A DNA stretch of 64,000 nt from Patescibacteria group bacterium (GCA_041742135.1 JBGSJG010000001.1:67151-131150); one strand, 5' to 3'; positions 22,176-52,304 are shown, counted from the first letter of the stretch. The notes: generated from the sequence alone by a model not told the origin. Program-made: numbers and translations.

Positions 22176-22178
22176 GGT

Positions 22179-23231: not shown

Positions 23232-23234
23232 GGT

Positions 23235-33016: not shown

Positions 33017-34105
33017 TCATTCTTCAGCAACTGCGTCGGCAGCTTCTTCAGGCTTATCTTCAGATTTTTCTTCAGGTTTTTGGGACCCTTCGGCTTCCTC
33101 AGCTTCAATTCTAAAACCAGTGATTCTTCCGGCAAGTTTGATGTTCTGTCCGTCTCGGCCAATAACCAAAGAAAGCTGGTCGGCTGGAACTTTAACTACT
33201 GCTGTTAAATTTTTCTTATCAAGTGTGAGCTCGGTAATTTCAACAGGGGCAAAAGTTGCCTTTATAAGCTCGCTGGCATCCTCCGACCAAGGAATAATAT
33301 CTACTCGCTCTCCTCCAAGCTCAGTTGTAACTGCTTGAACTCGAACGCCTTTTTGGCCGACACAGCTTCCAACTGGGTCAACTCCAGGCTGGGTAGAAGA
33401 AACTGCAATTTTGGTGCGAATTCCGGGATCGCGAGCAATCGCTTTGATCTCAACTGATCCGGAAGAAATCTCCGGAACTTCTCGAGCAAAGATTTTTTTG
33501 ACAAACTCTGGGTCAGCTCGAGAAAGAATTATTTGTTTTTCGCGTGGGCCGTCTTCAATGGCTTTAAGTAAAAACGACAGGCGCTGAGCCAAATTCAAGT
33601 GTTCTGTCGGAACTCGCTCTTCGGCGGGCATGAGGCCTTCTGTTTTGCCCAAATCAACTCGAACGTTTGGCCCATCAAATCGTAGTACTGTGCCGGAAAC
33701 TAATGAGCCTACGCGGCCACCAAATTCCCCGAATACTACTCCCTTCTCTGCTTCTCGGATTTTTTGATGAATTACTTGCTTGGCAGTTTGTGCTGCGATT
33801 CTTCCAAACCCTGGAGGTGTAACATCCACTCGCTCGTCCAGCTTGGCTGGCTCAAGTTCTGTGCCGTCTTCGTCAACTTTTGCTCCGGGCCAAGCAAAAA
33901 TCTTGGCTTCGCCTGTAACATTGTCGATTTCTGCGTCGTAATCATTTGTATCAACTTCAACTCCCTGTTCGCGAGCATCTCTTTTGTATGCCGCAACATA
34001 GGCTTGTTTAATTGTTTCGAGGATTACTTCGGCATCAAGACCACGCTCCTGAGCGATTGCTTTGAGTGCCTGACTAAATTCTGTTCTTGGTCCTTGGTTT
34101 GCCAT
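33017..34105 (-). CDS. nusA: Transcription termination/antitermination factor NusA
   Basis: It has the N-terminal domain, S1 and KH (…MANQGPRTEF…AKIFAWPGAK…). The likely true start is the ATG at 34105 (MANQ), not the TTG-type start at 34144. The C-terminal tail is acidic. Confidence 0.9.
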   Translation of the reverse strand: MANQGPRTEFSQALKAIAQERGLDAEVILETIKQAYVAAYKRDAREQGVEVDTNDYDAEIDNVTGEAKIFAWPGAKVDEDGTELEPAKLDERVDVTPPGFGRIAAQTAKQVIHQKIREAEKGVVFGEFGGRVGSLVSGTVLRFDGPNVRVDLGKTEGLMPAEERVPTEHLNLAQRLSFLLKAIEDGPREKQIILSRADPEFVKKIFAREVPEISSGSVEIKAIARDPGIRTKIAVSSTQPGVDPVGSCVGQKGVRVQAVTTELGGERVDIIPWSEDASELIKATFAPVEITELTLDKKNLTAVVKVPADQLSLVIGRDGQNIKLAGRITGFRIEAEEAEGSQKPEEKSEDKPEEAADAVAEE

Positions 34106-34112
34106 GTTTTTT

Positions 34113-34138
34113 ACAAAAAAAGGTGGGTCAAGCCCACC
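34113..34138 (-). terminator. Rho-independent terminator-like hairpin between the upstream hypothetical gene and the nusA start
   Basis: On the minus strand GGTGGG-cttga-CCCACC is followed by TTTTTTT. The plus strand reads aaaaaaaGGTGGGtcaagCCCACC. Confidence 0.5.
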
Positions 34139-34202
34139 TATCAAGTAACTAATCTAGGGTATTTTAAGCTAATTGGGGTAGATAAGTCAAACTCAAAAGA
34201 AT

Positions 34203-34844
34203 TTAATCGGGGAGATTTTTTGCAACAACTGGTGCAACGCGTGCCTTTACTGTCCGGTTGTTACTATTACTGGCATCAATATCAGTTTCAACTTGGTAAT
34301 ATTCTTGGTTCAATCCGTCTCTCACGCGGACCACCGTCGAGTGGGTCTTTGCCGCGTAGTTTTTTTGGCCGCCCGCATCGTCAAGTGTAGGCAGCGACAG
34401 CATTGAAGAAATCGAATCGGGATCCATACGACCTGGGATCGGCGCTTTGATTTTATCCTCTTTGTTGGGTGCTTGAGACCAGACAAGTTCCTTCTCCTTT
34501 GGATCATAGACCAAAAGATCGACCGCAACTCCAGGCGTCTCGCTTGTTTTAACATAAGGCAAAACACCATACGATACGCCGCTGGCCTCCACAGTAAACG
34601 GCAAGTCAACTTCTTGCCCATCATGTGGTGACTTTGGCTGAAACAAAAAGGTTCGGTCCGTGTCGATTCCCCCAACCGACCCTCGCCTTGTTTGCGTTTT
34701 TTGGTCCAAATCAAGATAAACAGCAGGGCGAGCATCGACATAGGATTCGGATTTTAAAACTCCAAGTTGCGCAGGTACTGGACGTGACGTATCAAGGGAG
34801 AAGTTTGGGCGAGCAGGTGGTGTAATATCAAAGTCTTCTGGCAT
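34203..34844 (-). CDS. Hypothetical protein with charged, atypical composition
   Basis: The ORF is 213 aa with no recognised motifs. A terminator-like hairpin lies downstream. Confidence 0.45.
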   Translation of the reverse strand: MPEDFDITPPARPNFSLDTSRPVPAQLGVLKSESYVDARPAVYLDLDQKTQTRRGSVGGIDTDRTFLFQPKSPHDGQEVDLPFTVEASGVSYGVLPYVKTSETPGVAVDLLVYDPKEKELVWSQAPNKEDKIKAPIPGRMDPDSISSMLSLPTLDDAGGQKNYAAKTHSTVVRVRDGLNQEYYQVETDIDASNSNNRTVKARVAPVVAKNLPD

Positions 34845-34894
34845 AGCACCATTTTATGTTTAACGCAGTTGATAGTCAAACCTGATAGAATCAA

Positions 34895-35536
34895 TTGATG
34901 GCAGATACAGAAGAAGGCGCGGCCGCAGGCCCTTACATTGCTCCAGAGCGCAGAGCCGCTCCGGGGGTGATTTTAGTCGAGCCTCTCGTCATGAATGGCA
35001 CTTATTGCCTAGATTTAACTCCTAATAATAATCCCGAATTTTACGGTTTAGCAAAAAAAATGAGCGAGGATGCTGGCGCGAAAGCTGATCTTGCCCAAAC
35101 CGTGGCTTCAATAAACAAGTATTCTCCGCCCGGCGTACCTGCCGAAGAATATAAAAAGAAAGTCGACCCACTTCAGAAAGGTGCGATTGTTCCAATCGAC
35201 ACATTTTTCGAAGGCGACAGCAGCGTGCCCGCTTACTGTTACGAGAGGACTTTACTCACTCAGCTAGTATTAGCCCAAAAGGGGCACCAAACAATGAGAG
35301 TTAACCTCCGAAACACCCCTTCCGAAAACGCCCCTGGCTTAAATCACATGCTTCTAAAGGTCGTGGATGGACCATATATTGACACCAACGACATATCCAT
35401 TCGCGATGGCCAGAGAAATATTAGTGCCAGCATTGTCGGCCAAGAAGAGGAGCTAAGGAAAAAGTACGGTAGTTATGGGGAAATATCCATTACGCAAACG
35501 GGCGACCCAAACGTTTTTAGCCCTGTAAAACGTTGA
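34895..35536 (+). CDS. Hypothetical protein with a possible transglutaminase-like / papain-fold Cys-His-Asp core
   Basis: Segments …AYCYERTLLTQLVLAQKGHQTMRVNL…NHMLLKVVDGPYIDTND… resemble the Cys-helix, His and Asp arrangement of TGc-type cysteine peptidases. The assignment is tentative. Confidence 0.45.
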   Translation: MMADTEEGAAAGPYIAPERRAAPGVILVEPLVMNGTYCLDLTPNNNPEFYGLAKKMSEDAGAKADLAQTVASINKYSPPGVPAEEYKKKVDPLQKGAIVPIDTFFEGDSSVPAYCYERTLLTQLVLAQKGHQTMRVNLRNTPSENAPGLNHMLLKVVDGPYIDTNDISIRDGQRNISASIVGQEEELRKKYGSYGEISITQTGDPNVFSPVKR

Positions 35537-35543
35537 AAAATTG

Positions 35544-36437
35544 TTACTGAGACTCTGCCTTGTCTAACTTCTCAGCCCAATAAGAATAGGCTGCCGCCCG
35601 TAACCGCACAGGACCCTCGCCACTACCTCTACCTAGCATATATGCAACTGTCTCCCCAACAGTGCGTGCTTCTGGAATTGGCAATCCATGTTTTGTGATT
35701 ATTCTGTCTGAAGAATCTCCAATTTTTGGCCCAATGAAATATCTATCTCTCATCTCAAACACTGCCTCTTGAACCTGTTGCTCTGTAACAGAGTCTCCCG
35801 CAATCTCCCGCCATGAGCCATACTTAACCGGCGTGAGCACGTCCATAGGGCTTGAAGCATTGTTTTGATAAAATTTCTCCAAATTTCGACCAACATCACT
35901 AGTGTTGGCATCTGCTAGCAAACCAGCTTCCTGGGACCTTACAATCCTCGCCGCCGATACTGGCTGGGTAGAGATAGATATCCTCATTCTCTTTTCTTCC
36001 GGAATGTCAGTTATCATTGCCCCTAGCTTTGCGACAGGAAAGCTCATTTGAACTCTCATTTCAGACACAATTGCGTCAGTTTTTATCACACTTCTGGGGT
36101 TAGTACCGAGAGTGGAACCCAGAACCAAACCGCTCTCTAAAACAGGTTGGCCGAAATACTCCTGATTTGTTGGAGCATATAAATCAGCTTGGGGGGCGCG
36201 AATTTTGTCATCCGCTTTCCCTGTAACAAGAAGGTGCACTGCCGTGTTATCTTCAAAACGAAGCTCGAGAACGTTAGGCGCTTCTATCAGATTTAAATCA
36301 ACCAGTTTGCCTTGTTCATTGATTGCTTCAATTGGACCAATAGCTTTGGCCTTTTGGCGAAGTTCGCCTGGATCCGAGACTTGGCCACCAGACACATTAC
36401 GGCCTTCAAGTATTTGGTGAGCTGGTTCTTCTGGCAT
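35544..36437 (-). CDS. Hypothetical protein
   Basis: The ORF is 297 aa and lies between dnaJ-like and the TGc-like gene. No family was recognised. Confidence 0.45.
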   Translation of the reverse strand: MPEEPAHQILEGRNVSGGQVSDPGELRQKAKAIGPIEAINEQGKLVDLNLIEAPNVLELRFEDNTAVHLLVTGKADDKIRAPQADLYAPTNQEYFGQPVLESGLVLGSTLGTNPRSVIKTDAIVSEMRVQMSFPVAKLGAMITDIPEEKRMRISISTQPVSAARIVRSQEAGLLADANTSDVGRNLEKFYQNNASSPMDVLTPVKYGSWREIAGDSVTEQQVQEAVFEMRDRYFIGPKIGDSSDRIITKHGLPIPEARTVGETVAYMLGRGSGEGPVRLRAAAYSYWAEKLDKAESQ

Positions 36438-36444
36438 GTGTTTA

Positions 36445-37320
36445 CTATAACCCTTCTTTTCTCAATTCTTCTATTAACTTCTTCTGATCCCGATTAAGCT
36501 TGGCTGGAGTGCTTACTGCAATGCGAACGTATTCATCCCCACGCCCCGCGCCTCGCAGGTGTTTGACTCCGCGTTCACGAAGCCTCATCATACTGCCGGC
36601 TTGGGTTCCCGGCCTAATTTTAATCTTCACCTCATCGTCCACAGTCGGAACGTCTATTTCGCCTCCAAGTACAGCCATTGAGTAGGGAATTTCCACTTTT
36701 ACATAAATATCTGCCCCATCTCGCTCGAAAATATTATGAGGGCGAACATTTACAGACAGTACAAAATCTTCAAACTGAATGCGTGTCCCATCGTCAACAC
36801 CCGCTGGGATTTTGATCGTTCGTTTTTTATTATTTATGGATACTTGCTTTTCTGACCCGTGAACCGCATCCATAAAATCTACGTCGATACCGTATCTGGG
36901 GATCTGGCGAGCTTGGCGAAAACCACCTCCGCCGCCAAAGAATTGTTCAAAAATTTCGAAGGGGTCTCCAAAATCAAATCCCGCAGCCCCTGGCCCACCA
37001 CTGGAATATGAGTAAGTAAACGGCCGCTGGCCTCCACCGAAAGGGTTCCCTCCTGCAAATGGGTTGGCTCCAGCTCCTCCACCGGGCGCAAAAGCTTGAT
37101 GGCCAAATTGGTCATACGCCTGGCGTTTGCCAGAATCAGAGAGAACTTGGTAAGCTTCGTTTATTTCTTTGAAGCGCTTTTCGGCCGCTTCTTTGTTGTC
37201 TTTGTGCTTGTCCGGGTGCCACTCGACAGCTTGTTTTCTGTAAGCTTTTTTAATGTCTTCTGCCGAAGCGGTCTTATTGACCCCTAAAATATCGTAATAA
37301 TCTGCTTTTGCGGCTGCCAT
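36445..37320 (-). CDS. dnaJ: DnaJ-family co-chaperone without the Cys-rich zinc-finger domain (type II / CbpA-like)
   Basis: It has a J domain with HPD (…[14 protein letters not shown]…), a Gly-rich linker and C-terminal substrate-binding domains. No CxxCxGxG repeats are present. Confidence 0.8.
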
Positions 37321-37362
37321 GTGAGCAATATTGTATCAGGTGAAGGAAAAATTGTTAATCAG

Positions 37363-37584
37363 TTATCTCTTTAGAGTGCTAATATTAGCTTGAATATATA
37401 CATCCAAAGCATCAGCAACAAGACCTGCACGGGAGGCTTCGCCACTCGTTTCCCTCGAATGTCGTTCAAGACGATGTTTCGCACTTCTTAGCTCTCCCAC
37501 AGAAAACACGGACACATCTTGGGCGTCACCGCCATTTCCGAATTTTATCAGGGACGCATATAAGTCGTTTACTCTTTCCGTCAT
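37363..37584 (-). CDS. Small hypothetical protein
   Basis: A 73-aa ORF between dnaJ-like and the next hypothetical gene. Confidence 0.3.
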   Translation of the reverse strand: MTERVNDLYASLIKFGNGGDAQDVSVFSVGELRSAKHRLERHSRETSGEASRAGLVADALDVYIQANISTLKR

Positions 37585-37644
37585 AGTTGTGGGATTTTAT
37601 ATCCTTATGGGGATTTTATCAAGCAGTTGTATTTGCCGACTGCA

Positions 37645-38310
37645 TTAATTACGAGAAAATTTTTCAGCTAATCGTGCCGCTACACCCTTTTGTCGCCTTC
37701 CGCCTTCTCTCTGGTTATCAAATTTTCTGGCCTCAGCGAAATTCGGGCTTCCGGTCTTGCCGTCATCCCTTCGCCATGCGGCGTACTCGCCCAGAAATGC
37801 ACCCAAGTCCTCTCCTGGATGTTCCCGAATCTCCAATTTTCTAAATTTAGGGTCCCTAGCTTCACTGAGATTTCCAGGGAACTGCTTACCGACTTTTACA
37901 TAATCACCCAATACTTCAAAAAAGGTCGGGGCTTCTGCGCCTTTGCCAACTTTTCTATCCCAAACATCTTCATAGTCTGCGGCCAAGCTCCGAACCCTTT
38001 GCTCCCTTTCAGGCCGAGAGAGCCCTGGCTTATACTCATTTTTCGGATCAGTCAAAGATGCAAGCGTGCCCATTTTCCCCAAGAACTCCCTTTGGCGGCT
38101 CTCCAATGAACGTTGCTCCGAGACTGTCATATCTGTCTCACCCAACCCCTCGTAATAGTCGGCCATTTTACGATCTAGTTCACCAAGTTTTTCGGGATCT
38201 TCGTGAACCTGGCCATGAGACGTATCGATAAGATCGTTTATCCGTCTTTCGGCCACTAAAACCTTGAAGGAATCTGCGTTTATTTCAGGAAAGCTATTGC
38301 CTTCTGGCAT
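37645..38310 (-). CDS. Hypothetical, highly charged protein
   Basis: A 221-aa ORF immediately upstream of dnaK. No family was recognised. Confidence 0.45.
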   Translation of the reverse strand: MPEGNSFPEINADSFKVLVAERRINDLIDTSHGQVHEDPEKLGELDRKMADYYEGLGETDMTVSEQRSLESRQREFLGKMGTLASLTDPKNEYKPGLSRPEREQRVRSLAADYEDVWDRKVGKGAEAPTFFEVLGDYVKVGKQFPGNLSEARDPKFRKLEIREHPGEDLGAFLGEYAAWRRDDGKTGSPNFAEARKFDNQREGGRRQKGVAARLAEKFSRN

Positions 38311-38315
38311 AATAT

Positions 38316-40244
38316 TTATTCTACAACTTCGCCTTCTTCAACCCCTTCGGCTGGCTCAGGGCCTTTGGCTTTCCCATCGGCTTTTGGCTCTTCATTCTTA
38401 TCTTCCCCTTCGACTCCCTCAGGTCGCTCAGGGCTTTCAGTCTTCTGTGCTGCTTTATACATTGCTTCTCCCACTTTCTGCAGCTCTTCTGAAAGTTCTT
38501 TTGTAGCCGCTTCGATTTTCTCGCGGTCTTCACCGTCTTTAACTTCTTTCACCGCTTTTATTTTCTCTTCAACTTTTTCAACGATATCTTTAGGAGCTTT
38601 GTCTCCAGCATCTTTTATGGCTTTTTCAGCGGCATTAACAATCGACTCGGCCGTGTTTTTGGCATCAATTAGGGCTTTTTTCTTTTCATCTTCTACTTTA
38701 TTCTTCTCGGCCTCTTCCTTCATCTTCTCTACTTCTTCGTCGGTTAAGCCAACTGCACCGGTAATAGTAATGTCTTGGGTCTTACTTGTAGCCTTATCTT
38801 TGGCTGTAACTTTGAGTAAGCCATTCGAATCCATGTCAAAAGTTACTTCAATTTGAGGAACCCCTCTTGGGGCCGGAGGAATACCGTCAAGAGTAAATGT
38901 TCCAAGTTGTTTATTGTCGCGGCTCATCGGTCGCTCGCCTTGGGTAATTACAATTTGCACCTGAGTTTGATTATCTCCAGCTGTTGAAAACACTTCGGTT
39001 TTGCTGGCTGGAATGGTTGTATTTCGTGGAATCATTGGGGTTGCAACCTGGCCCATGGTCTCAATAGCCAAAGTCAAAGGAGTTACATCGAGTAGTAAAA
39101 TGTCTTTTACTTCCCCGCCCAAAACTCCACCTTGAATAGCAGCTCCGATGGCAACAACTTCATCAGGATTAACTGACTTGTTGGGCTCTTTGCCAAAAAA
39201 TGCCTTTACAGTTTCGACAACTTTTGGCATGCGGGTCATGCCTCCTACCAAGATTATTTCATCAATATCTTTCGGCTCGACCTTTGCGTCTTTAAGAGCA
39301 GCCTTTACAGGCTCCATGGTTGCGTCGATGAGGTCGCCCACCAAACTTTCAAGCTTGGCTCGGGTGAGTTTCATCGTCAAATGCATCGGCTGGCTGTCTT
39401 TTTGAGTTATATAAGGCTGGTTAATTTCAACCTCAGAAGCGGCCGAAAGCTCAATCTTGGCTTTTTCAGCTGCATCACGCACGCGCTGGAGCGCCTGATT
39501 GTCTTGCCTTAGATCCACCCCATTGTCCTTTTTGAATTCCTCAGCAATGTAGTCAACAATCTTTTCATCAAAGTCGTCCCCTCCCAAGTGAGTGTCACCG
39601 TTTGTGGATTTAACTTCAAATACCCCATCCCCAAGTTCCAAAATGGAAATATCAAAAGTTCCGCCGCCCAAATCATAAACTGCGATTTTTTCGGCCTTTT
39701 TCTTGTCCAAACCGTAAGCCAAAGCTGCGGCGGTTGGTTCGTTAATAATTCTCTCAACTTTAAGCCCAGCAATTTCTCCAGCCTGTTTTGTGGCTTGCCT
39801 CTGGGCGTCGTCAAAATAAGCGGGGACTGTAATGACAGCCGACTCCACTTTTTCGCCAAGGTAGGCTTCAGCGTCTTTTTTAAGCTTTGCCAAAACTTTT
39901 GAAGAAATTTCCTGTGGAGTATATTTCTTGCCTTCCACTTCCACCTCAGCCATGTCGGCCTTGCCAGAAACGACGTCATAGCCCACCATCTTTTTGGTGC
40001 GAGTTACTTCCGAGTCACTTGCGCGGCGACCCATGAGGCGCTTTACCGAGTAAATTGAATTTTTAGGATTTAGAATCATTTGCCTCTTGGCAACATCTCC
40101 GACGAGATTTTTAACGGGCTCAACTACTGAAGGCGTAATGTTGCGACCTGTATCCGCCGCTGGAATAACTTTGGGGGATCCCCCCTCCATCACAGCGACT
40201 ACTGAATTTGTTGTTCCTAAATCTATACCAATTATTTTTGACAT
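38316..40244 (-). CDS. dnaK: Molecular chaperone DnaK (Hsp70)
   Basis: Translation [18 protein letters not shown]…DLGGGTFD…[11 protein letters not shown]…. Confidence 0.95.
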
Positions 40245-40545
40245 AATTTTAAACTAGCACTAATATACTGCGAGTGCCAAACAGTTGTCAAGAGTTATTT
40301 TCTTCAATGGCATTATAGCCACCCCAAGTACCTTGATCGTCATTTTCTCCAGCAAGCCTCGCCCAGCCTTTAATTCCTGCCAGCATGTCATCGTTATTCC
40401 CAGGTGGGACACGATGGTCGTCACGGTTAGGATTGTTTCTTCTTCTTTTCTCAATCTCAGTCTGTTTTCGCGCCTCCGTTGCAATAGCTTTGCCAGCACT
40501 TTTGCTAACACTTTCTATAGCGTCAACTTCTTTGCCATAAAAACC

Positions 40546-40797
40546 TTAAAGAATCTCTCTTCCCTGTTCATATTCTGGCCAAGCTTGGTATCTCCACCTT
40601 TCAGGCACAAGAACTGTAGGTGTGCCAAATGGACTTTCTACGATTGCTATATTGGGAGCGACCAGTTCCCAGACAAATCTTTCAGCTGCTACCTTCATTG
40701 AATCATCAATAACTCTACGGCTTCTCTTAGTAGCTGCCTCGACAGCATCCACAACATCTTGTGGTGTAATGTTTAGTCCATGTTCAAATTCAGTCAT
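40546..40797 (-). CDS. Small hypothetical protein inserted between grpE and dnaK
   Basis: The ORF is 83 aa. It overlaps the grpE stop by 8 nt, which suggests co-transcription. Confidence 0.4.
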   Translation of the reverse strand: MTEFEHGLNITPQDVVDAVEAATKRSRRVIDDSMKVAAERFVWELVAPNIAIVESPFGTPTVLVPERWRYQAWPEYEQGREIL

Positions 40798-41248
40798 TTG
40801 CTACCTTTCTAACCACAACCTTTGCAGGCCGCACAATTTGCTCTCCCTGCTTCCAGCCTACCAAACTTACCTTCTCTATAGTATTATCCAAATCCTGCCC
40901 GGCTGTTTCAAGCACTTCGATCGCCTCCATGGTTAATTCATTAAAAATTTCATCTGATTTTGGCTCGATTTTCTCAAAGCCATCATCATATAAGACCTGC
41001 TCAAATTCTTTTATGACAATCGAAAGCCCACCATCTTTGAGGTGCTCTTGGGCCCCGTAAAGCATGTCTAAAATTGGCAAAAGCCTTTTGATAACCCTCT
41101 GGCTGGATATGAAATAAAGCTCCGAAGTCATCTTCTCAGTTCGCTTTTGCAAATTGTCATAATCAGCCAATGCACGAACCAATTGGCTTTTAAGAAGCTC
41201 GACTTCTGGATTAACTTGCGTGGGTTTGGATGCTTTGGTCTTAGGCAT
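40790..41248 (-). CDS. grpE: Nucleotide exchange factor GrpE
   Basis: Translation …LLKSQLVRALADYDNLQKRTEK…IEKVSLVGWKQGEQIVRPAKVVV… has the GrpE architecture. Length is 152 aa. Confidence 0.85.
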   Translation of the reverse strand: MPKTKASKPTQVNPEVELLKSQLVRALADYDNLQKRTEKMTSELYFISSQRVIKRLLPILDMLYGAQEHLKDGGLSIVIKEFEQVLYDDGFEKIEPKSDEIFNELTMEAIEVLETAGQDLDNTIEKVSLVGWKQGEQIVRPAKVVVRKVAND

Positions 41249-41972
41249 TGGTTAATTGGCGAATAAGATCCCCATAATAACGAACTGTAGGGATAACTCT
41301 AGGATAATTCAAACCAAAAGGACCTACAACCCCGATTGCACCTTCTTGGTTGCCAATTCGAAAACGGCTTGCAACCATACCAATAGGCTCAAAGAAGTCC
41401 CAACCCAATTCCTCGCCAAACAAAACCTCAATCGGAGAAGCTCCGGTGAGCCTGCCAAACAGAAGCTCGCGCAGGCTTCGCTCGCCATCAAGAACGCCAA
41501 ACAAGCTTTGGCAAACCTGGAAGTTATAAAATTCCGGGCTGTTAAACAAATTAGCATGCCCCGCAACCCAATGATCGCCGTTATCTAAGGCCGAGACGGC
41601 CAAATACTGAGTTTGATCGGCCAAAGAATCAGTGGCGTCACGCATAAAACGGTCGATGTTGTCACGACTGTCCCACACTTCCTCTTTTGCATGAACTTCA
41701 TCGGTCACGCTAAGCCTTTTTTCATCCATAAGCTGGTTAATATAAAACTTCATAGCTTTAGGAGTTGGCACACGGCCTGCAGAAGTGTGAGGCTGTTTTA
41801 GGTACCCCTTAATAGTCAACAGCGCCATTTCGTTTCTAATAGTTGCAGGAGAAACACCAAGGCTATATTTGTTTTCCAGAGAAACCGAGCCCACAGGCTC
41901 AGCTGTCGTGATATATTCATCAATAATGGCCTTGAGTAAATGAGTCTGTCGAGACGACAAAGTATCTTCCAT
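41241..41972 (-). CDS. hrcA: Heat-inducible transcription repressor HrcA, a short form of 243 aa
   Basis: The N-terminal winged helix-turn-helix is …RQTHLLKAIIDEYITTAEPVGSVSLENKYSLGVSPATIRNEMALL…. It is positioned upstream of grpE-dnaK. Confidence 0.8.
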   Translation of the reverse strand: MEDTLSSRQTHLLKAIIDEYITTAEPVGSVSLENKYSLGVSPATIRNEMALLTIKGYLKQPHTSAGRVPTPKAMKFYINQLMDEKRLSVTDEVHAKEEVWDSRDNIDRFMRDATDSLADQTQYLAVSALDNGDHWVAGHANLFNSPEFYNFQVCQSLFGVLDGERSLRELLFGRLTGASPIEVLFGEELGWDFFEPIGMVASRFRIGNQEGAIGVVGPFGLNYPRVIPTVRYYGDLIRQLTNA

Positions 41973-42005
41973 TTAGCAGAATGCTAACACGAGTGATAAG
42001 AAGTG

Positions 42006-42884
42006 TCAATCAATTTTAAGAGTAGCCCCGAGACGTGAATAAACGTTTTGGGTTACCACAGGCAAATTTACACTCGTCACACCCGTAACCACTGCATGTA
42101 CGCTTGCGTAGGCTTCGTATTCATCATAAGTTTTTCCCAAAAATGAATATGTAGCTGCCATACCAACTCCATTACAGAAAGCCTCCTGATACGGTCCGAG
42201 CTCACCATTCGGGAATAACGCCAAACGGTTCGGATCTGTATTAAATTGCCCCTGACAAATTTCTGTAAAAACTGAATTAACTAATAGAACCGAGGCCTGC
42301 TCGCGGGGACTTACGGCCGAAAAGCCGTACTCACGGGCATAAGTATCGCGGCCCCCGTCTTGCTGGAAACGCCGCAATGCCTCGCCTAATATTCCACCAA
42401 AATCGATAACTGTGCGGTGCGCGCTTTCGGGCATTATCCATGTAGTCGCATTATTATTCCAGTCGTATCTTCGTGCGTCCGGCATGTGATCAAGAACTAA
42501 AATTTCTTGCCCATTGGGCTCGGGATCGGTTCTTATCCAGCTTTGCCACCCTTGATTTTCCGGAAGACCGGTGGAGGCGTTTCTGGCTTCTTCCAAAAAC
42601 TCAAAGTACTCAGGACTCACGTTGATTTCTGGTAGGCGCGTATCTGATGGCCTTAGAATTTCTACCGCGGCTCCGTTAGGGTGAGTAAATATAGTCTCGC
42701 GAGTCGTGCCTTGAGTTAGAAATTCCCAATCCTGATAAGGTTTTAGCTCTTGGTCCTCTGCGTCGACTGTCGGGCTTCCCGCTGGAGGGGTATTTTCTAT
42801 TGAAGGACTACAAGACGTAGGCAAACCGACTGCAAAACTTAGCGCAACAGCCGTTGCATATCTGCGAAGTCGATCCTTGTTCAT
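42006..42884 (-). CDS. Secreted protein or lipoprotein of unknown function
   Basis: It has an N-terminal signal sequence with a lipobox-like …AVGLPTSCS…. The overall composition is atypical. Confidence 0.5.
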   Translation of the reverse strand: MNKDRLRRYATAVALSFAVGLPTSCSPSIENTPPAGSPTVDAEDQELKPYQDWEFLTQGTTRETIFTHPNGAAVEILRPSDTRLPEINVSPEYFEFLEEARNASTGLPENQGWQSWIRTDPEPNGQEILVLDHMPDARRYDWNNNATTWIMPESAHRTVIDFGGILGEALRRFQQDGGRDTYAREYGFSAVSPREQASVLLVNSVFTEICQGQFNTDPNRLALFPNGELGPYQEAFCNGVGMAATYSFLGKTYDEYEAYASVHAVVTGVTSVNLPVVTQNVYSRLGATLKID

Positions 42885-44172
42885 GGGAGATATTATACTC
42901 TCTTTCTAAATATCGTTTCAAATCAGCGCTGGCCTTTACTGAAAGCTCTTCTAGCGGGCTATTGTAACCATCTTCAACTGCTCTCCAATGCAAAAGATGA
43001 AAGTCAGTCCCTCTCTCGTCGTCTTCACGGATCCACTCATCCTCTGTGTCATACTCATAAGCAAAGGAATCGTCTGGGTGATAACCTGCGACTCTATCCA
43101 GCAGGTCTCTTGTGACACCCAAGTCCGAGAGTTGATCGTCGCCAATCTGATCTGCCCACTGCCTGATAAATCTTTCGCCCGTCGTCGAAACTAAAGGCCG
43201 AAGTTCCTTATGCTCATTCCCCAAATTCCGATATCCTTCATACCCATCAGTCCTTTCTATTTCTTCAGTAAGAGCTTTTAAGTGTGCCAGTTGCCTTATT
43301 TCCAACGCGAAATCGCGACATGATTCTCGAAATGCTCGCCCTGCCTCTGTGTCTTCCATGTCGCTGCGATCACCCCGAAGGCGCTCAAATTCTCCTAGGC
43401 CCATTTCGGAAAGATTTAAGCCATGCACTCTACCACGCCGATCTTCTTCTGCTCGACGAAGCGAAACACTTCTTTCTACAAACTCTGGCTCGCTTTTCCG
43501 TGTTACCTGCACTACCGTCTTCCTGATTTGTTTTTCAACATCCTCATCACTTATACCAGTTAGATCAGTCATGAAATTGTTCAACCTTTTGACCTCACTA
43601 GGATCTGCTTTTAGTAGAGATTTTGGAGAGATGTACCTCAGATCAAACTCCCTTCCTTCCTGAGGGTCTAATTTGCACCCCTCATCCTTGAGACGATGGA
43701 CAGTATTTTGAAAAGCCTCACGGTCGGTGTACGTTGCCATATAATTGCTAGATTTATCCTTGTACTCACCTCTGAGAAAACTAGCCATAGACTGAGCGGC
43801 ATTAACAATTCTTTGTCTTCCAACTTTTTGCATTAAAGCCTTTACAGCCTTAGGACCTTCAAGATGAGCTTCGACAAATCTAAGGTAGTTGGCGCCACCT
43901 CCTAATCTACTTTTTCTTTCTGCTTCATCTGCCTCAATCTCTACCACATCAACACCCAATCGCGGAGATTCACCATGAAGAATTAGTTGAGCTTCTATAA
44001 AACCTTCAGCTTGTACATGACGATTATCATTAGATCCTAGGCAGTCCATTATCTCACTAGCCTTTGCCTGACGCCCTTGCCTCTCAGTTCTCACAATATT
44101 CCCAAGATTATCATTCGCAAGACGATACTCAGCCAATTCCTGCTCAGTTGTCATGGGTGAATCCTCAGTCAT
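42808..44172 (-). CDS. Hypothetical highly charged protein with a C-terminal Cys cluster (CNGCCAKFC)
   Basis: The ORF is 454 aa. Its 3' end overlaps the start of 42006..42884 by 77 nt in a different frame. No family was recognised. Confidence 0.45.
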   Translation of the reverse strand: MTEDSPMTTEQELAEYRLANDNLGNIVRTERQGRQAKASEIMDCLGSNDNRHVQAEGFIEAQLILHGESPRLGVDVVEIEADEAERKSRLGGGANYLRFVEAHLEGPKAVKALMQKVGRQRIVNAAQSMASFLRGEYKDKSSNYMATYTDREAFQNTVHRLKDEGCKLDPQEGREFDLRYISPKSLLKADPSEVKRLNNFMTDLTGISDEDVEKQIRKTVVQVTRKSEPEFVERSVSLRRAEEDRRGRVHGLNLSEMGLGEFERLRGDRSDMEDTEAGRAFRESCRDFALEIRQLAHLKALTEEIERTDGYEGYRNLGNEHKELRPLVSTTGERFIRQWADQIGDDQLSDLGVTRDLLDRVAGYHPDDSFAYEYDTEDEWIREDDERGTDFHLLHWRAVEDGYNSPLEELSVKASADLKRYLEREYNISHEQGSTSQICNGCCAKFCSRFAYVL

Positions 44173-46320: not shown

Positions 46321-46869
46321 ATGGCGCGTGCGAAAGCCAGTATTAATTTGTTGCCTAGAGAAGATTTCGAAAGAACTATTCTTGGCCGCATCATGAAGTG
46401 GGCCTTAACCTCATTTCGTTTCATTGTAATTGCCGTCGAGTTTGTGGTGATTGCAGGTTTTATGCTCCGTTTTTGGCTCGATGTTCAAATCAGCGACTTG
46501 GACGATGAGATTAACCAAAAAGCCGCCCTTGTGTCTTCACGTTCAAGTTTTGAACAAGAATTCCGAAGCACCCAAGACAAACTTGCCGTACACAAACAAT
46601 TGACCGACAAAGCAAACCAACCAAGCGTTTACTTTGAAGAGGTGTCTCGCAATCTTCCTAGTGACACACAGCTTATTTCTTTTGCAAAAAGTGCTGATTC
46701 GCTGGAGATTATTGGTGCAACTTTAAACGAAGCTTCGATCACGGGATTTGTCAAAAATCTTGAGACCAATCCTCGTTTTACTTCCGTAAACTTGTCCTCA
46801 ATATCTACTCGCGACGACAGCCCTTTAGTTGAGTTTGTACTAAAAATATCGACAATAAATACAATTTAA
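46321..46869 (+). CDS. pilN: Type IV pilus assembly protein PilN
   Basis: It has the N-terminal INLLP motif followed by a TM helix (…KASINLLPREDFERT…FIVIAVEFVVIAGF…). Confidence 0.65.
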   Translation: MARAKASINLLPREDFERTILGRIMKWALTSFRFIVIAVEFVVIAGFMLRFWLDVQISDLDDEINQKAALVSSRSSFEQEFRSTQDKLAVHKQLTDKANQPSVYFEEVSRNLPSDTQLISFAKSADSLEIIGATLNEASITGFVKNLETNPRFTSVNLSSISTRDDSPLVEFVLKISTINTI

Positions 46870-46870
46870 T

Positions 46871-47551
46871 ATGGCAAATCGTTGGCAAGAAAATTATCAG
46901 CTTTATAAAAGATATCTGCGAAGCTTGGCTGCAATGTACCAAAAGCGCCAAGATGTACATCTGTTTGTCGAACTTTTACTTTCACTGTCGGTGATTGCCA
47001 TTTTTGGAGCATTTGCAATCAAGCCTACTTTAGTAACAATTTCCGACCTAAACAACCAAATTGCAGGAAAGAAAGAAACGGTTGCCCAGCTTGACGCCAA
47101 GATCCAAGCTCTCTCGGAAGCCCAAAACGTGTACCAGGAAAATTTGAGCGCAATTTTGCTTCTTAATAGTTCAGTCCCTCAAAATCCTGAGCCAGAAAAA
47201 TTTATTAGACAGGTCGAAGGCTTGGCCAAGCGCAATTCCGTATTAATTTCCAGTCTTGATACCTCAAATTTGAAATTAACCTCGCATGAAATACTCACAG
47301 AAGAAGTGGACCAGTCACCCAGCGCCGAGGGTGCAGCTGTCGATTATTTTCCTGCCGCCGCCGCAAGTTTTGAGCTTGAAACAAATTTCAACGGCGTTTA
47401 CGATCAATTAATCGCCTTTTTGCGTGAATTCGAAAATCTTCGAAGGCCGATGTATATCGACACTATAACTTTTCGTTCTTCCTCTGAAGAGCTAAGCCGC
47501 GAAATTGCTTTATCTATCATGGGCAGGCTGTCTTATCTACCAAATGAGTAA
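46871..47551 (+). CDS. PilO-like type IV pilus assembly protein
   Basis: It has a short cytoplasmic N-terminus, a TM helix, a coiled coil (…QIAGKKETVAQLDAKIQALSEAQ…) and a C-terminal domain. It is translationally coupled to pilN with a 1-nt gap. Confidence 0.5.
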   Translation: MANRWQENYQLYKRYLRSLAAMYQKRQDVHLFVELLLSLSVIAIFGAFAIKPTLVTISDLNNQIAGKKETVAQLDAKIQALSEAQNVYQENLSAILLLNSSVPQNPEPEKFIRQVEGLAKRNSVLISSLDTSNLKLTSHEILTEEVDQSPSAEGAAVDYFPAAAASFELETNFNGVYDQLIAFLREFENLRRPMYIDTITFRSSSEELSREIALSIMGRLSYLPNE

Positions 47552-47918
47552 AAGAGAAAAAACACCACCAGTTGTAATTTTTGCAATTTTGTCAGTGATT
47601 ACTGTTTTTGTTTGGGTAGGTTTTGAAACCTACAGAGCATTCACCAAAGACCCAACACCAACTGTGCCTTTAGAAGTAACCCGCGCTTTAGACCCAACTC
47701 TTGATGAAGAGCAACTGGCAGATGTGGTCAGACGGATCAATCTGACAGAAGACGAAATCGGAGACACCACACTAGTGCAACCAGAAACTCCAGAACCAAC
47801 TGAAACGCCAGCACTAACCCAGACAGAAGAACCAGTTGAAACAACTGAGACCGCACTTGAATCAGGTGGTGATGAACAAGCTATACTGGAAGAACTAGAT
47901 CAACTATTGGAAGAATAA
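47544..47918 (+). CDS. Small N-anchored protein with an acidic Thr/Glu-rich C-terminus
   Basis: The start is taken at the internal ATG (MSKREK). The TM helix is VVIFAILSVITVFVWVGF. The tail is …TETPALTQTEEPVETTETALESGGDEQ…. Confidence 0.45.
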   Translation: MSKREKTPPVVIFAILSVITVFVWVGFETYRAFTKDPTPTVPLEVTRALDPTLDEEQLADVVRRINLTEDEIGDTTLVQPETPEPTETPALTQTEEPVETTETALESGGDEQAILEELDQLLEE

Positions 47919-47919
47919 C

Positions 47920-49344
47920 ATGCAAAACAAATTGAAAATTCCGTCACTTCTTGGGGTGTTTGTCTTAGTTCTTGGACTTGCCGTGGGAGTTGCCCTCATA
48001 GGCCAAAGACAGATATTTCGCCTTGGAGCATCCGCAGACTCAGCTCCACAGGATGTCAGGATTTCCAATGTTACCGACTCTTCTTTTACGGTTTCTTGGT
48101 ACAGTACTAAACCAACTGTTGGATATATCAGTTGGGGTAGCACAACAGCTTTAGGGCAAAGCTCTGAGGTGTCTGGCCTTGATACTAAAACCGTTCACTC
48201 TGTCACTGTAGACGAACTTTCGGCGAGTACAAATTACTACTTTGTAATCAACTCCGGCGGTGTTGAGTTTGATAATAATGGCATAGCCTGGTCGGTTGCC
48301 ACAGGGCCTACTTTGTCTGTAAACGCGACAGCGCTTTTGGCATCAGGAACAATTCGTGCAGCAGACGGCTCCCCGGCAAGCGACGTGTTGGTCTATATAA
48401 ACGGGGGCGGATTAGCTCAAGTTTCTGGCGTAACCTCACAAAATGGTACCTGGACAATACCGCTGTCATCTGCCCGAAGCAGAACACTTTCTGCGTATGC
48501 AAACTTAACAGCCAACGACATCCTTGACGTGTACGTACAAGCAGGAGGTTTAGGAGTAGCTACCGCGCAAGTTCTGGTCTCTCAAACAAATCCTACTCCC
48601 GAAATAGTTTTAGGGCAGTCGTACGATTTTAGAAATGACCAGACAATAGACTCAGGAGGCTTACCAGAAGCAGATTTATCTTTGCCTGAAAACGAAGAAG
48701 AATTGGGGCCCGGTGGGCTTGATCTTTCAAGCCAAGAGACCGGGTCTTCATCGGAACGTCCTGTAACTATCGAAAGCATTGATGAGGCAGAAGAAATTGT
48801 TTATACCGACACACCAGAGTTTTTTGGCGAAGGCCCCGCTGGGTCTGTCATCACGATTACTGTTGAGTCGGATCCTGTTACTGATGAGGTGAGGGTCACT
48901 AACGGAGGTGAGTGGAGTTGGAGCCCACCCACTTCACTTCCAGATGGCGAACACACTATAACCATAAGCTGGATTGATGCTTCTGGATTTTTAAGAAAAA
49001 TTACTCGTTCGTTTGTTGTTGCAGCAGCAGAGGATGAACCCGGGTTTGAATCCACTCCGTCTGGGGCTACGTCTACCCCCAAGCCAACAGCGTCACCGAC
49101 GCCCACGCCCACAGCTACACCAAAAGCAACTAAGTCACCCACGCCCTCCCCAACACCGACTGCAACGATTAAGCCAACTGTAACCCCGAGCGCCACTCCC
49201 GCCCCGACACGCATAAGCATTCCTTCAACAGAATCTGGAGTGCCAGAAGCAGGTGTCGCAACCCCCACTCTTCTTTTGGCATTTGTTGGACTAGCTCTAT
49301 TTATCTCTGGTATATTTATTAGTAGAAAATCATTTAACTCATGA
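47920..49344 (+). CDS. Cell-surface protein with an N-terminal signal or anchor, an FN3-like domain, a Pro/Thr-rich stalk, a C-terminal VPEAG motif, a hydrophobic helix and an RK tail (sortase-substrate-like)
   Basis: The FN3-like domain is …VRISNVTDSSFTVSWYS…. The stalk is …PTPTPTATPKATKSPTPSPTPTATIKPTVTPSATPAPT…. The C-terminus is …SGVPEAGVATPTLLLAFVGLALFISGIFISRKSFNS. Confidence 0.6.
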   Translation: MQNKLKIPSLLGVFVLVLGLAVGVALIGQRQIFRLGASADSAPQDVRISNVTDSSFTVSWYSTKPTVGYISWGSTTALGQSSEVSGLDTKTVHSVTVDELSASTNYYFVINSGGVEFDNNGIAWSVATGPTLSVNATALLASGTIRAADGSPASDVLVYINGGGLAQVSGVTSQNGTWTIPLSSARSRTLSAYANLTANDILDVYVQAGGLGVATAQVLVSQTNPTPEIVLGQSYDFRNDQTIDSGGLPEADLSLPENEEELGPGGLDLSSQETGSSSERPVTIESIDEAEEIVYTDTPEFFGEGPAGSVITITVESDPVTDEVRVTNGGEWSWSPPTSLPDGEHTITISWIDASGFLRKITRSFVVAAAEDEPGFESTPSGATSTPKPTASPTPTPTATPKATKSPTPSPTPTATIKPTVTPSATPAPTRISIPSTESGVPEAGVATPTLLLAFVGLALFISGIFISRKSFNS

Positions 49345-50171
49345 ACCCACCTGCTCAAAATTTTGATCCGCCTGTAGCTTTCCCTCAAGTTGAGTCTTTT
49401 CCAAATCCTGACATGGGGACACTGCCACCAGCCCCTACAGCCGTAACTCCAACAGATGTACCTCCAACCATCATTACTTCAACAGCTGATTCAGGGTCTC
49501 CCAAAAAGAAATTTCCTAAACAGATCGCAGCAGTACTGGGCATAGTTGTGTTGCTACTTGGTGTTGTTGCTGGAGTCGTCTTAGTCCGCAGTCAACAATT
49601 AAATAATGCTTCTGCTTGGGAGTGCTCACTGTATACTTTTGGTTTGGGCCAAGACGGCTCAGTCACGGTTCAAAATGGTTCAAGTACCAATCAACCTCAG
49701 CAAGAAGCTCAAGTCTATATAAACGACATATTAATCGAGAGATTCACAGTTCCCGCTCTTAACGCTGGAGCAGGAACAACACTGGGAAGCGTTAGTGTAC
49801 CGCAAGACGAGCCTTATACTTGGAAAATTCAAGGAACACTTGATTGCCAAAACGTTGGAAGCGTAGGTGGAAACTCTGACTCGGCAATTTGTTTAAATGT
49901 TGTGGCCTACGACACACAGTGGAACGTATTAAGCGCATCTGAGCTTTCAGAACTTAACGAAGGTGATACAGTGAGATTTGCAGTTTCCGGCACTGCTACA
50001 ACGGGAACCATCGACAGTGCTAGGTTTAGAATTAATAGCGGCACCCCAGTTGAAACAACAGAAAAAAAGCCGGGTAGCGAAGAGTTTTTTGTGGAGTACG
50101 AAATTCCTGCAAGCACCCAAAGCTTTAGCATTAGTGCCCAGTTGCATCACAATACGGCTGGTTGGTTTTAA
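49341..50171 (+). CDS. N-anchored bitopic protein with a Pro-rich cytoplasmic tail and a C-terminal GWF domain
   Basis: Translation MNPPAQNFDPPVAFPQ…KKKFPKQIAAVLGIVVLLLGVVAGVVLV… The C-terminal ~95 aa (…VVAYDTQWNVLSASELSEL…LHHNTAGWF) are paralogous to the C-terminus of 51127..52299. Confidence 0.6.
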   Translation: MNPPAQNFDPPVAFPQVESFPNPDMGTLPPAPTAVTPTDVPPTIITSTADSGSPKKKFPKQIAAVLGIVVLLLGVVAGVVLVRSQQLNNASAWECSLYTFGLGQDGSVTVQNGSSTNQPQQEAQVYINDILIERFTVPALNAGAGTTLGSVSVPQDEPYTWKIQGTLDCQNVGSVGGNSDSAICLNVVAYDTQWNVLSASELSELNEGDTVRFAVSGTATTGTIDSARFRINSGTPVETTEKKPGSEEFFVEYEIPASTQSFSISAQLHHNTAGWF

Positions 50172-50176
50172 GACAT

Positions 50177-51124
50177 ATGAACAATACTTTTTTACATAAA
50201 AATTTAACAACCATAATAGTCGTTGCTGCCACTGTCCTTCTAGGTGGGGTTGCGGTATTTACCGGGCTTAGGCTTTTTCAGCTTAGAAACGAGCCAGTAG
50301 CTCCAAATGCTCCCCAAAGCGAGCCTCAAGCGGCAAACGAAGGCGTCATTTTGACCATTCCTTTGGAAACTGTAAAAAGAGGCCCCGGACAGCATCTCTT
50401 GGCAACTCAAGATGTATCCCAGTATAGCGGCCTTGTTTGCGAAGTGACTGCAACTGCCCAAAACCAAGGAAGCGTACACCCAGACAACGACTTGGTAGTA
50501 GCATCGGGGGGCGGTAGCGTTGTTGTTCCGGATGTAGAAAGAGAGGCAGGCGGTGTCTTTTCAGCAAGTGGAACTCTGACTTTGGGAAGCACTGTTACCG
50601 TAACTCTTGAAATGGGTCCCGATGAGGTTTTTTCAGCAGGAATTGACGTCTCACTTGATTGTATAGTCCCCACACCAACCCCGACACCGCAAATTGTTAC
50701 GCAGTCCTGTACTGATTTAGCTTTTGCGCTTTCTACTCCAACCTCCACGGCTGCAGCGACGCCTACTGCAACCCCAACGAGCACGCCTACAGCTACACCA
50801 ACTGCCACATCAACTCCAAACATGACACCTGAGTATCCTTGCAACAGTAAATGTACACTGGATAGCCAGTGTCAAAAGACAGACTCAAACTATGTTTGCC
50901 ATGACGAAGCAGGGCAAACAACTTGCAGGCACCGCGCATACACAAGCCAAGAAAACTGTCAGCCGCCAACAAGTACACCAACAAGTACCGCAACCACAAC
51001 TGCACGCGCCACTGCAACAGCAACACCCGCTGCCTTGCCACAAGCAGGAGTTGGAACTCCAACAATTGTGGGTATTGGTGCAGGCATATTGTTACTACTG
51101 GGTGCTTTAGCTCTCGCTCTCTAA
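50177..51124 (+). CDS. Surface protein with an N-terminal anchor or signal, a Cys-rich module, a Thr/Pro/Ala-rich stalk and a C-terminal LPQAG motif plus hydrophobic helix
   Basis: The ATG is at 50177; the ORF track starts at a TTG at 50162. The N-terminus is …GGVAVFTGLRLFQLRNEPVAPNAPQSEPQ…. The Cys-rich module is …TPNMTPEYPCNSKCTLDSQCQKTDSNYVCHDEAGQTTCRHR…. The C-terminus is …AALPQAGVGTPTIVGIGAGILLLLGALALAL. Confidence 0.6.
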   Translation: MNNTFLHKNLTTIIVVAATVLLGGVAVFTGLRLFQLRNEPVAPNAPQSEPQAANEGVILTIPLETVKRGPGQHLLATQDVSQYSGLVCEVTATAQNQGSVHPDNDLVVASGGGSVVVPDVEREAGGVFSASGTLTLGSTVTVTLEMGPDEVFSAGIDVSLDCIVPTPTPTPQIVTQSCTDLAFALSTPTSTAAATPTATPTSTPTATPTATSTPNMTPEYPCNSKCTLDSQCQKTDSNYVCHDEAGQTTCRHRAYTSQENCQPPTSTPTSTATTTARATATATPAALPQAGVGTPTIVGIGAGILLLLGALALAL

Positions 51125-51126
51125 AT

Positions 51127-52299: not shown

Positions 52300-52304
52300 T
52301 TAAT

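Follow-up and report, generated by a model that had tools for sequence, protein, structure and literature searches.

Gene content of the chaperone region

We have analysed a 64-kb stretch of DNA from a Patescibacteria group bacterium (GCA_041742135.1, JBGSJG010000001.1:67151-131150; hereafter the window) in which, between 34203 and 44172, the heat-shock genes hrcA, grpE, dnaK and dnaJ are interleaved with eight uncharacterised open reading frames (ORFs), here named h1 to h8 and referred to as orphans. The best match of the HrcA protein, at 83% identity, is that of a metagenome-assembled genome of Candidatus Woesebacteria (locus L001), its identity to further Woesebacteria and Microgenomates is 40-66%, and judged by its sequence the window is part of an uncultured Candidatus Woesebacteria genome, within the Microgenomates of the candidate phyla radiation (CPR). 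The original prediction for this region had spoken of about nine uncharacterised, compositionally atypical genes which might be stress-co-regulated or horizontally acquired; those that it named number eight, all of them are present at the predicted coordinates and interleaved with nusA, dnaJ, dnaK, grpE, hrcA and murJ (as identified with Pfam and NCBIfam), the four chaperone genes having been named correctly, and they are indeed uncharacterised in that none of the eight has a match in Pfam or NCBIfam.

The class I heat-shock operon of the Bacillus subtilis type, in which hrcA-grpE-dnaK-dnaJ are controlled by HrcA through its operator, the controlling inverted repeat of chaperone expression (CIRCE), is well established. 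In a synteny comparison of about 110 related CPR loci the wider gene order murJ-hrcA-grpE-dnaK-dnaJ-nusA-infB-...-pnp is kept across related loci and occurs throughout the Microgenomates. The genes of this backbone that frame or lie within the region are as follows:

33017..34144, minus strand: nusA, the right-hand backbone gene, with a likely true start at ATG 34105; 65-69% identity to relatives (tblastn)
36445..37320, minus strand: dnaJ, 291 aa, matching Pfam DnaJ and DnaJ_C only; 59-67% identity to relatives
38316..40244, minus strand: dnaK; 75-90% identity to relatives
40790..41248, minus strand: grpE, matching the NCBIfam GrpE models; 40-55% identity to relatives
41241..41972, minus strand: hrcA, 243 aa, matching Pfam HrcA; 83% identity to L001
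44320..46005, minus strand: murJ, the left-hand backbone gene; 50-73% identity to relatives

The order of the chaperone genes is retained, but grpE and dnaK are spaced 546 bp apart and dnaK and dnaJ 996 bp apart, so the window does not hold four adjacent genes behind one CIRCE promoter; this arrangement is found in the relatives L003 and L007, where the backbone is fully compact. Two features of the chaperone proteins themselves are also seen in Microgenomates relatives, namely a DnaJ that has the J domain and C-terminal domain without the CXXCXGXG zinc-finger domain, and a short HrcA.

The eight orphans are listed below, with coding scores in bits/codon; within the searches described further on, none of h1 to h7 has a homologue and h8 has one:

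34203..34844, minus strand: h1, 213 aa, starting with ATGCCAGAAG; coding score 0.258; no family
34895..35536, plus strand: h2, the sole plus-strand orphan, divergent from h1; coding score 0.199
35544..36437, minus strand: h3, 297 aa, starting with ATGCCAGAAG 7 nt after the dnaJ stop codon; coding score 0.241
37363..37584, minus strand: h4, 73 aa; coding score 0.108, lower than for any other orphan
37645..38310, minus strand: h5, 221 aa, 36% charged, starting with ATGCCAGAAG 5 nt after the dnaK stop codon; coding score 0.247
40293..40797, minus strand: h6, a full frame of 168 codons, originally predicted as 40546-40797
42006..42884, minus strand: h7, 292 aa; coding score 0.138
42808..44172, minus strand: h8, 454 aa, 34% charged; coding score 0.139; one distant homologue

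The gene predicted inside the hrcA-grpE-dnaK unit, h6, extends over the grpE stop codon by 8 nt as predicted (ATGACTGA) and would thereby be coupled to grpE; the predicted ORF, however, is only the first half of a 168-codon frame that is interrupted by a single in-frame TAA at 40546-40548. After this stop codon the frame continues for 84 more codons and ends within the -35 box of the dnaK promoter. A coding signal is present in each half (0.295 and 0.355 bits/codon), with the best score of the region in the half behind the TAA, and h6 could be a broken gene or recent pseudogene, the product of a sequencing or assembly error, or a case of read-through. The genes h8 and h7 do overlap, by 77 nt. 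Exact look-ups of DnaK and of h8 in its 454-aa form returned no record, whereas a Logan contig identical to the window carries h8 in a 448-aa version; an identical contig is contained in SRR28170474.

Coding capacity and composition of the orphans

Coding capacity was assessed with a codon model trained on 42 other genes of the window, whose own reference scores were obtained by leave-one-out. In their annotated frames the eight orphans have codon log-likelihoods of +0.11 to +0.30 bits/codon, compared with 0.247 +/- 0.089 for the reference genes, whilst in the five alternative frames the score is negative for all eight; furthermore, GC1 exceeds GC2 in the orphans as it does in native genes. 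Given this frame-specific codon signal, together with the full-length homologue of h8, the eight ORFs are genuine protein-coding genes and not chance frames.

The composition of these genes is native to their host. GC content is 0.465 in the orphans and 0.446 +/- 0.024 in the reference genes (Mann-Whitney p = 0.06), GC3 is 0.392 as against 0.396 (p = 0.89), and codon usage falls within the reference range; the region as a whole has a GC content of 0.460 compared with 0.445 for the remaining window, and its neighbours nusA and infB, together with dnaJ, lie at 0.467-0.478. The impression that the orphans are more GC-rich and compositionally atypical therefore did not survive computation. Nor are they highly charged as a group, the charged fraction being 0.274 compared with 0.261 in soluble reference genes (p = 0.81), with only h5 (0.36) and h8 (0.34) slightly exceeding the top reference gene (0.33).

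All are hydrophilic and acidic, with pI values of 4.7-6.7. The seven orphans other than h7 look like soluble, acidic, cytoplasmic proteins from their sequences. The h7 product is probably exported or lipid-anchored, since its N-terminus carries a hydrophobic, signal-peptide-like segment, read from the sequence, that ends ...GLPTSC. The functions of the orphans are presumed to be accessory.

Gene starts and promoters

Promoter-like pairs of -35 and -10 boxes end 6-9 nt before the ATG of h8, h7, h4 and h1, and also of hrcA and dnaJ. The sites outside hrcA and dnaK, all of them consensus matches on the minus strand, are:

Upstream of h1: TTGACT-17-TAAAAT, ending 6 nt before the ATG
Upstream of h4: TTGATA-17-TAAAAT, ending 9 nt before the ATG
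Upstream of h7: TTGAAA-18-TATAAT, inside the 3' end of h8
Upstream of h8: TTGCTA-17-TATAAT, ending 6 nt before the ATG
37358-37330: the promoter-like site of dnaJ

The likely start of h2 is the ATG at 34898, 6 nt past an extended -10 box (TGaTAGAAT), and -10-like hexamers also abut the ATGs of h3 and h5. This arrangement is general in the window: a TANNNT hexamer ends 5-10 nt before the start codon in 25 of 44 genes, compared with 8% of random positions, and a Shine-Dalgarno-like tetramer is found for 5 of the 44, compared with 12% at random. The organism thus appears to express most of its genes from leaderless transcripts that lack a Shine-Dalgarno sequence, and the orphans apparently use the usual start signal of their host, namely a -10 hexamer placed 5-10 nt ahead of the ATG and not accompanied by a Shine-Dalgarno sequence. 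The window in this way documents gene starts with the promoter at the ATG; a search of the literature on leaderless expression in the CPR and on orphan genes of Woesebacteria found no directly relevant work.

Three of the orphans have a further feature in common, as h1, h3 and h5 begin with the identical 10-mer ATGCCAGAAG, encoding Met-Pro-Glu, at 34835-34844, 36428-36437 and 38301-38310. It is absent elsewhere on both strands of the window, where approximately 0.1 occurrences would be expected. Beyond these ten nucleotides the three proteins and their upstream DNA are unrelated, and no paralogy was found among the eight orphans.

At the edge of the region a promoter-like site of nusA (34190-34161, minus strand) is followed by a G+C-rich hairpin with a T-run at 34139-34121, just before the ATG. 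This hairpin may serve to terminate h1, or it may be an attenuator in the leader of the nusA-infB unit.

CIRCE operators and the extent of the HrcA regulon

The whole 64 kb was scanned with a CIRCE position weight matrix built from 30 operators upstream of hrcA in relatives. Two strong sites and one marginal site were found:

41973..42009, minus strand: hrcA promoter TTGACA-17-TAGCAT, with an embedded CIRCE at 41973-41999 (25.4 bits)
40254..40291, minus strand: dnaK promoter TTGACA-18-TATATT, with an embedded CIRCE at 40254-40280 (24.3 bits)
37356..37382, minus strand: marginal CIRCE-like site (14.0 bits) upstream of the dnaJ promoter, overlapping the 3' end of h4

The corresponding element of L001 and L003 matches the hrcA promoter-operator at 89-92% identity. 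Over 40-47 nt the promoter-operator of dnaK (40255-40301) shares 80-85% identity with the hrcA promoter-operators of L024, L026, L005 and L019, as if the canonical hrcA control module had been copied to a position before dnaK. When the four gaps of the backbone were compared with the DNA of relatives, only one borderline match of 34 nt (E 0.007) was found besides these two promoter-operators. The dnaJ site has a perfect left arm, TTAGCACTC, and a degenerate right arm, and its 14.0 bits are to be read against the 15.9 bits that shuffled sequence can reach. No further site was detected by the scan, and there is none before h1, h2, h4, h7 or h8.

The distribution of operators in relatives bears on what happens to the regulon when the operon is opened. 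A CIRCE is present before hrcA in 71 of 77 relatives, and it is the single one in those with a compact operon. Before dnaJ, a CIRCE of at least 16 bits is present in 4 of the 17 loci in which dnaK and dnaJ are split and in none of the 24 compact ones, and by mismatch count further split loci qualify; among the relatives inspected in detail it is present in L004, L008, L010, L015 and L027, which have a dnaK-dnaJ insert, and not in L006 or L019. Before dnaK the figures are 1 of 5 split and 2 of 69 compact loci. A rule that a split junction always gains a CIRCE was considered and holds only partly; we regard it as a trend, not a rule, that the regulon stays together through extra operators once the operon has been opened.

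On this evidence the proposal that the orphans are co-regulated with the stress response is unsupported for most of them. Strong CIRCE elements lie only before hrcA and dnaK, the five orphans h1, h2, h4, h7 and h8 have promoter-like sites of their own with no CIRCE, h6 contains an in-frame stop codon, and conserved linkage to chaperone genes was found for none of the eight in 155 related loci.

Homologues of the orphan proteins

No significant match to any of the eight orphans was found in Pfam, NCBIfam, PHROGs or PADLOC. Two low-scoring hits, a PHROG excisionase on h6 (E 0.019) and the PADLOC system PDC-S37 on h8 (E 0.005), were treated as noise. Searches of the Protein Data Bank by sequence and profile, with h3, h5, h7 and a profile of h8 with its homologue, gave no match, and no orphan was matched in the phage, plasmid and IMG/VR viral contig collections. 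A scan of JGI metagenomes with h5 returned no match, and a metagenome scan with GrpE found no relative above 56% identity. Single-sequence AlphaFold2 (AF2) models of h3 (pLDDT 34.5) and h7 (pLDDT 36.7) were both unusable.

The searches of large protein libraries differed in depth. For h1 to h7 a word-index prefilter was used with at most 8000 candidates, and because the queries were concatenated the sensitivity of this search was lowered; over 5.8 billion proteins, three concatenated queries returned only h8 itself. For h8 alone an exhaustive HMMER search was made over 1.84 billion protein representatives, and this found only h8 itself (P0001) and one other protein, P0002. The latter is 509 aa long and aligns at 25% identity over the full length of h8 (E 1.2e-9 for the whole library, pairwise E 4e-16), making a family of two, of which neither member matches a Pfam model or a solved structure.

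The genomic context of P0002 differs from that of h8. On its 10-kb contig (L082, 1-10383) P0002 lies downstream of CHAP/NlpC-P60, PP2C-like and ClpB-like AAA+ genes and directly follows two tRNA-like sequences (read by eye); no hrcA or dnaK gene was called on this contig. P0002 also has a promoter abutting its ATG, the same start architecture as in the window. Within the limits of these searches, exhaustive for h8 and based on the word index, family libraries and tblastn for h1 to h7, the sequences of h1 to h8 are those of lineage-restricted orphans.

Variable junctions in related genomes

All eight orphans were compared by tblastn with the 155 related loci (1.8 Mb) and none had a match beside chaperone genes. 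The only matches were to L081, an identical contig from the same organism carrying h7 and h8, and to L082, the unrelated context of the distant h8 homologue. At the matching sites the orphans are therefore absent from relatives, the nearest of which is related only at the level of genus or family.

The junctions of the backbone differ in how often they are open in relatives, a junction being counted as open when the gap is at least 300 bp:

murJ-hrcA: open in 19 of 39 loci
hrcA-grpE: open in 3 of 79 loci
grpE-dnaK: open in 5 of 74 loci
dnaK-dnaJ: open in 17 of 41 loci
dnaJ-nusA: open in 13 of 20 loci
nusA-infB: open in 0 of 17 loci

Amongst Woesebacteria-like loci murJ adjoins hrcA in 9 of 10, with gaps of 22-170 bp. 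Where the junctions of relatives are occupied the cargo includes an NHL-repeat protein, a PMT_2 glycosyltransferase, a trypsin-like protease, a HicB antitoxin, a UvrA-like ATPase and several ORFs without a family. The junction ORFs of Woesebacteria-like relatives are unrelated to one another and to the orphans of the window, and more distant Microgenomates have conserved genes in common within the murJ-hrcA gap. At the rarely opened grpE-dnaK junction L001 has an ORF of 190 aa that, like h6, is coupled to grpE. No similarity between the two was detected, either as proteins (Smith-Waterman z < 2.5 against shuffles) or as DNA (a score of 20, compared with 21.9 +/- 2.8 in shuffles).

The original prediction was correct in that these ORFs are uncharacterised and are insertions when set against related genomes, and incorrect as to their composition.

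Probable accessory-gene turnover around a conserved backbone

The orphans are probably lineage-specific genes that occupy variable junctions of a conserved backbone, reflecting the accessory-gene turnover that is ordinary in the CPR, and constitute neither a special stress island nor an island of foreign DNA. We favour this reading because their composition is normal and because most of them have promoter-like sites of their own. An ancestral backbone of murJ, hrcA-grpE-dnaK-dnaJ and nusA-infB would have been opened at four junctions by eight orphans; we infer that the direction of change was gain in this lineage, and the division into transcription units and the dispensability of the orphans are likewise presumed. 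The heat-shock regulon would still work around the orphans by means of separate CIRCE-promoters, strong before hrcA-grpE, strong before dnaK and degenerate before dnaJ, and would remain intact because the separated chaperone units carry HrcA operators of their own. The genes h1, h2, h4, h7 and h8 would be transcribed from their own CIRCE-less promoters, which would place them outside the HrcA regulon; induction by heat shock would extend only to h6, which is coupled to grpE but has its frame broken by a stop codon, and could reach h5 and h3 by read-through. As to where the orphans came from, they could be the result of an old and ameliorated transfer, of de novo birth, or of divergence beyond recognition.

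Several observations weigh against turnover of this ordinary kind. It leaves unexplained the start ATGCCAGAAG that is common to three orphans. The promoter and operator calls are consensus matches and hence predicted sites, and h5 and h3 follow directly on dnaK and dnaJ, from which they may possibly be co-induced by read-through. Distant homologues of h1 to h7 could have escaped the less sensitive word-index search, and the ClpB-like AAA+ gene near the sole homologue of h8 is a weak hint, from a family of two members, at protein quality control. Furthermore the nearest relative, L001, is distant (GrpE 55% and MurJ 73% identity), and since its contig ends inside dnaK there is no short-range comparison of the junctions between dnaK, dnaJ and nusA; very fast divergence of positional orthologues is possible.

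Amongst the alternatives, the suggestion that the orphans are horizontal cargo of recent acquisition, for instance a mobile element, the remains of a prophage or a defence island, has in its favour that they are lineage-specific, absent from all relatives at the same positions and sited at junctions that vary between lineages. It can also draw on the two tRNA-like sequences adjoining P0002, tRNA genes being a classic insertion site. The remainder of the evidence makes recent acquisition unlikely: codon usage, GC and GC3 cannot be distinguished from those of native genes, the orphans are spread over four separate sites and do not form a single block, no direct or inverted repeats exceeding chance flank them, the window has no tRNA and no Rfam match, no integrase, transposase or recombinase domains were found, there is no match to PHROGs, PADLOC, phages, plasmids or IMG/VR, and the promoters of the orphans are of native type. 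A transfer long ago from a similar CPR donor, since fully ameliorated, is possible.

That the orphans are stress-co-regulated accessory proteins, whether co-chaperones, substrates or effectors, which belong to the HrcA regulon and are induced with DnaK, DnaJ and GrpE, is in our opinion improbable. Their physical interleaving with the genes of the regulon invites the idea, as do the overlap of h6 with the grpE stop codon, the starts of h5 and h3 only 5 and 7 nt behind dnaK and dnaJ, and the position of the sole h8 homologue two genes from a ClpB-like AAA+ ATPase. Against this, in no relative is any of the orphans retained next to the chaperones, compact operons are frequent, five of the orphans have a promoter-like site each and no CIRCE, and h6 is interrupted by a stop codon. 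In addition, the cargo of relatives at the same junctions is functionally unrelated (a glycosyltransferase, a protease, HicB and a UvrA-like protein).

It may also be speculated, as a long shot, that the junctions act as cradles for new ORFs, whether born de novo or captured, with young orphans needing little beyond a -10 box at the ATG; ATGCCAGAAG would then be a reused start module or a sequence favoured in leaderless initiation or re-initiation, and the extra CIRCE-promoter of dnaK would be a compensating change through which an essential regulon can tolerate the new genes.

It is very doubtful that there was no insertion and that the orphans and the junction genes of relatives are positional orthologues, with similarity lost through fast evolution. 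The best candidate pair is h6 and the L001 ORF, which are similar in size (168 and 190 codons), are both coupled to grpE and lie in the same rarely opened junction, GrpE itself being only 55% identical between the two genomes; many junction ORFs of relatives are also orphans. The pair, however, has no residual similarity in protein or DNA, several relatives have no room for a gene at these junctions, and junction contents vary in number, size and strand. Finally, that the ORFs are chance open frames in spacers or decayed pseudogenes is scarcely credible, for whilst seven lack homologues, h6 has an in-frame stop, h4 is short with the weakest coding score and the AF2 models of h3 and h7 are of very low confidence, the codon score is positive in frame for all eight, within the reference range, and negative in the other five frames, GC1 lies above GC2 just as it does in native genes, at 45% GC frames that stay open for 213-454 codons would not be expected to arise by chance, h8 has its full-length homologue, and low AF2 confidence is to be expected when no alignment is supplied.

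Comparison with known systems

Turnover of accessory genes around an intact regulon thus remains the probable reading, and it can be set beside three known systems. The region resembles a class I heat-shock operon in that gene order is kept, hrcA stands first, and a CIRCE of the form TTAGCACTC-N9-GAGTGCTAA or similar lies in a sigma-70-type promoter before hrcA. It differs in that the operon is split, with a second strong CIRCE-promoter before dnaK and a promoter of its own and a marginal CIRCE for dnaJ, and in that orphans follow grpE, dnaK and dnaJ; DnaJ is without a zinc finger, and HrcA is of 243 aa.

Orphan (ORFan) genes and the turnover of accessory genes at operon boundaries are general in the genomes of CPR/Patescibacteria. 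Like other CPR ORFans those of the window have no detectable homologues, show native codon usage, encode small to medium hydrophilic proteins and are sited between conserved transcription units, and as is usual for such turnover the relatives hold different cargo at the same sites. What is unusual is their density, eight in 10 kb, and an insertion in the rarely opened grpE-dnaK junction that is accompanied by a new dnaK operator. With genomic islands the orphans have patchy presence among relatives in common, but they differ in lacking atypical composition, mobility genes, flanking repeats and a tRNA target, and in forming four separate small inserts instead of a single block.

What might temptingly be misread as a special island is thereby cleared up as a conserved backbone with ordinary turnover at the boundaries of its units. 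The window offers a clean example of an HrcA regulon that would stay intact in a split operon through extra CIRCE-promoters, and eight well-supported orphan proteins, one of them probably exported and one in a two-member family, join the pool of unexplained CPR genes. The phenomenon is known and the proteins are new, and there is no sign of a new kind of system.

Other features of the window

Outside the chaperone region, a single ORF of 2342 aa at 2055-9083 (minus strand) is a fused rpoB-rpoC, with Rpb2 domains in residues 1-1074 followed by Rpb1 domains in 1115-2258. At 21456-24482 (minus strand) there are three tandem genes of 239, 350 and 415 aa whose proline- and threonine-rich N-termini (MNP[DE]..P...) are near-identical; the first two have MNPDQNPTPETTPAV in common together with nearly identical upstream DNA, and the middle gene has a weak match to signal peptidase S26. 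Beyond murJ, at 46321-53534 (plus strand), a PilN-domain gene (46321-46869) is followed by large surface proteins with Ig-like and fibronectin domains, and the set, which also holds paralogous genes at 49341-50171, 50923-52299 and 52290-53534, is conserved beside murJ in relatives and may be a type IV pilus or surface-appendage cluster.

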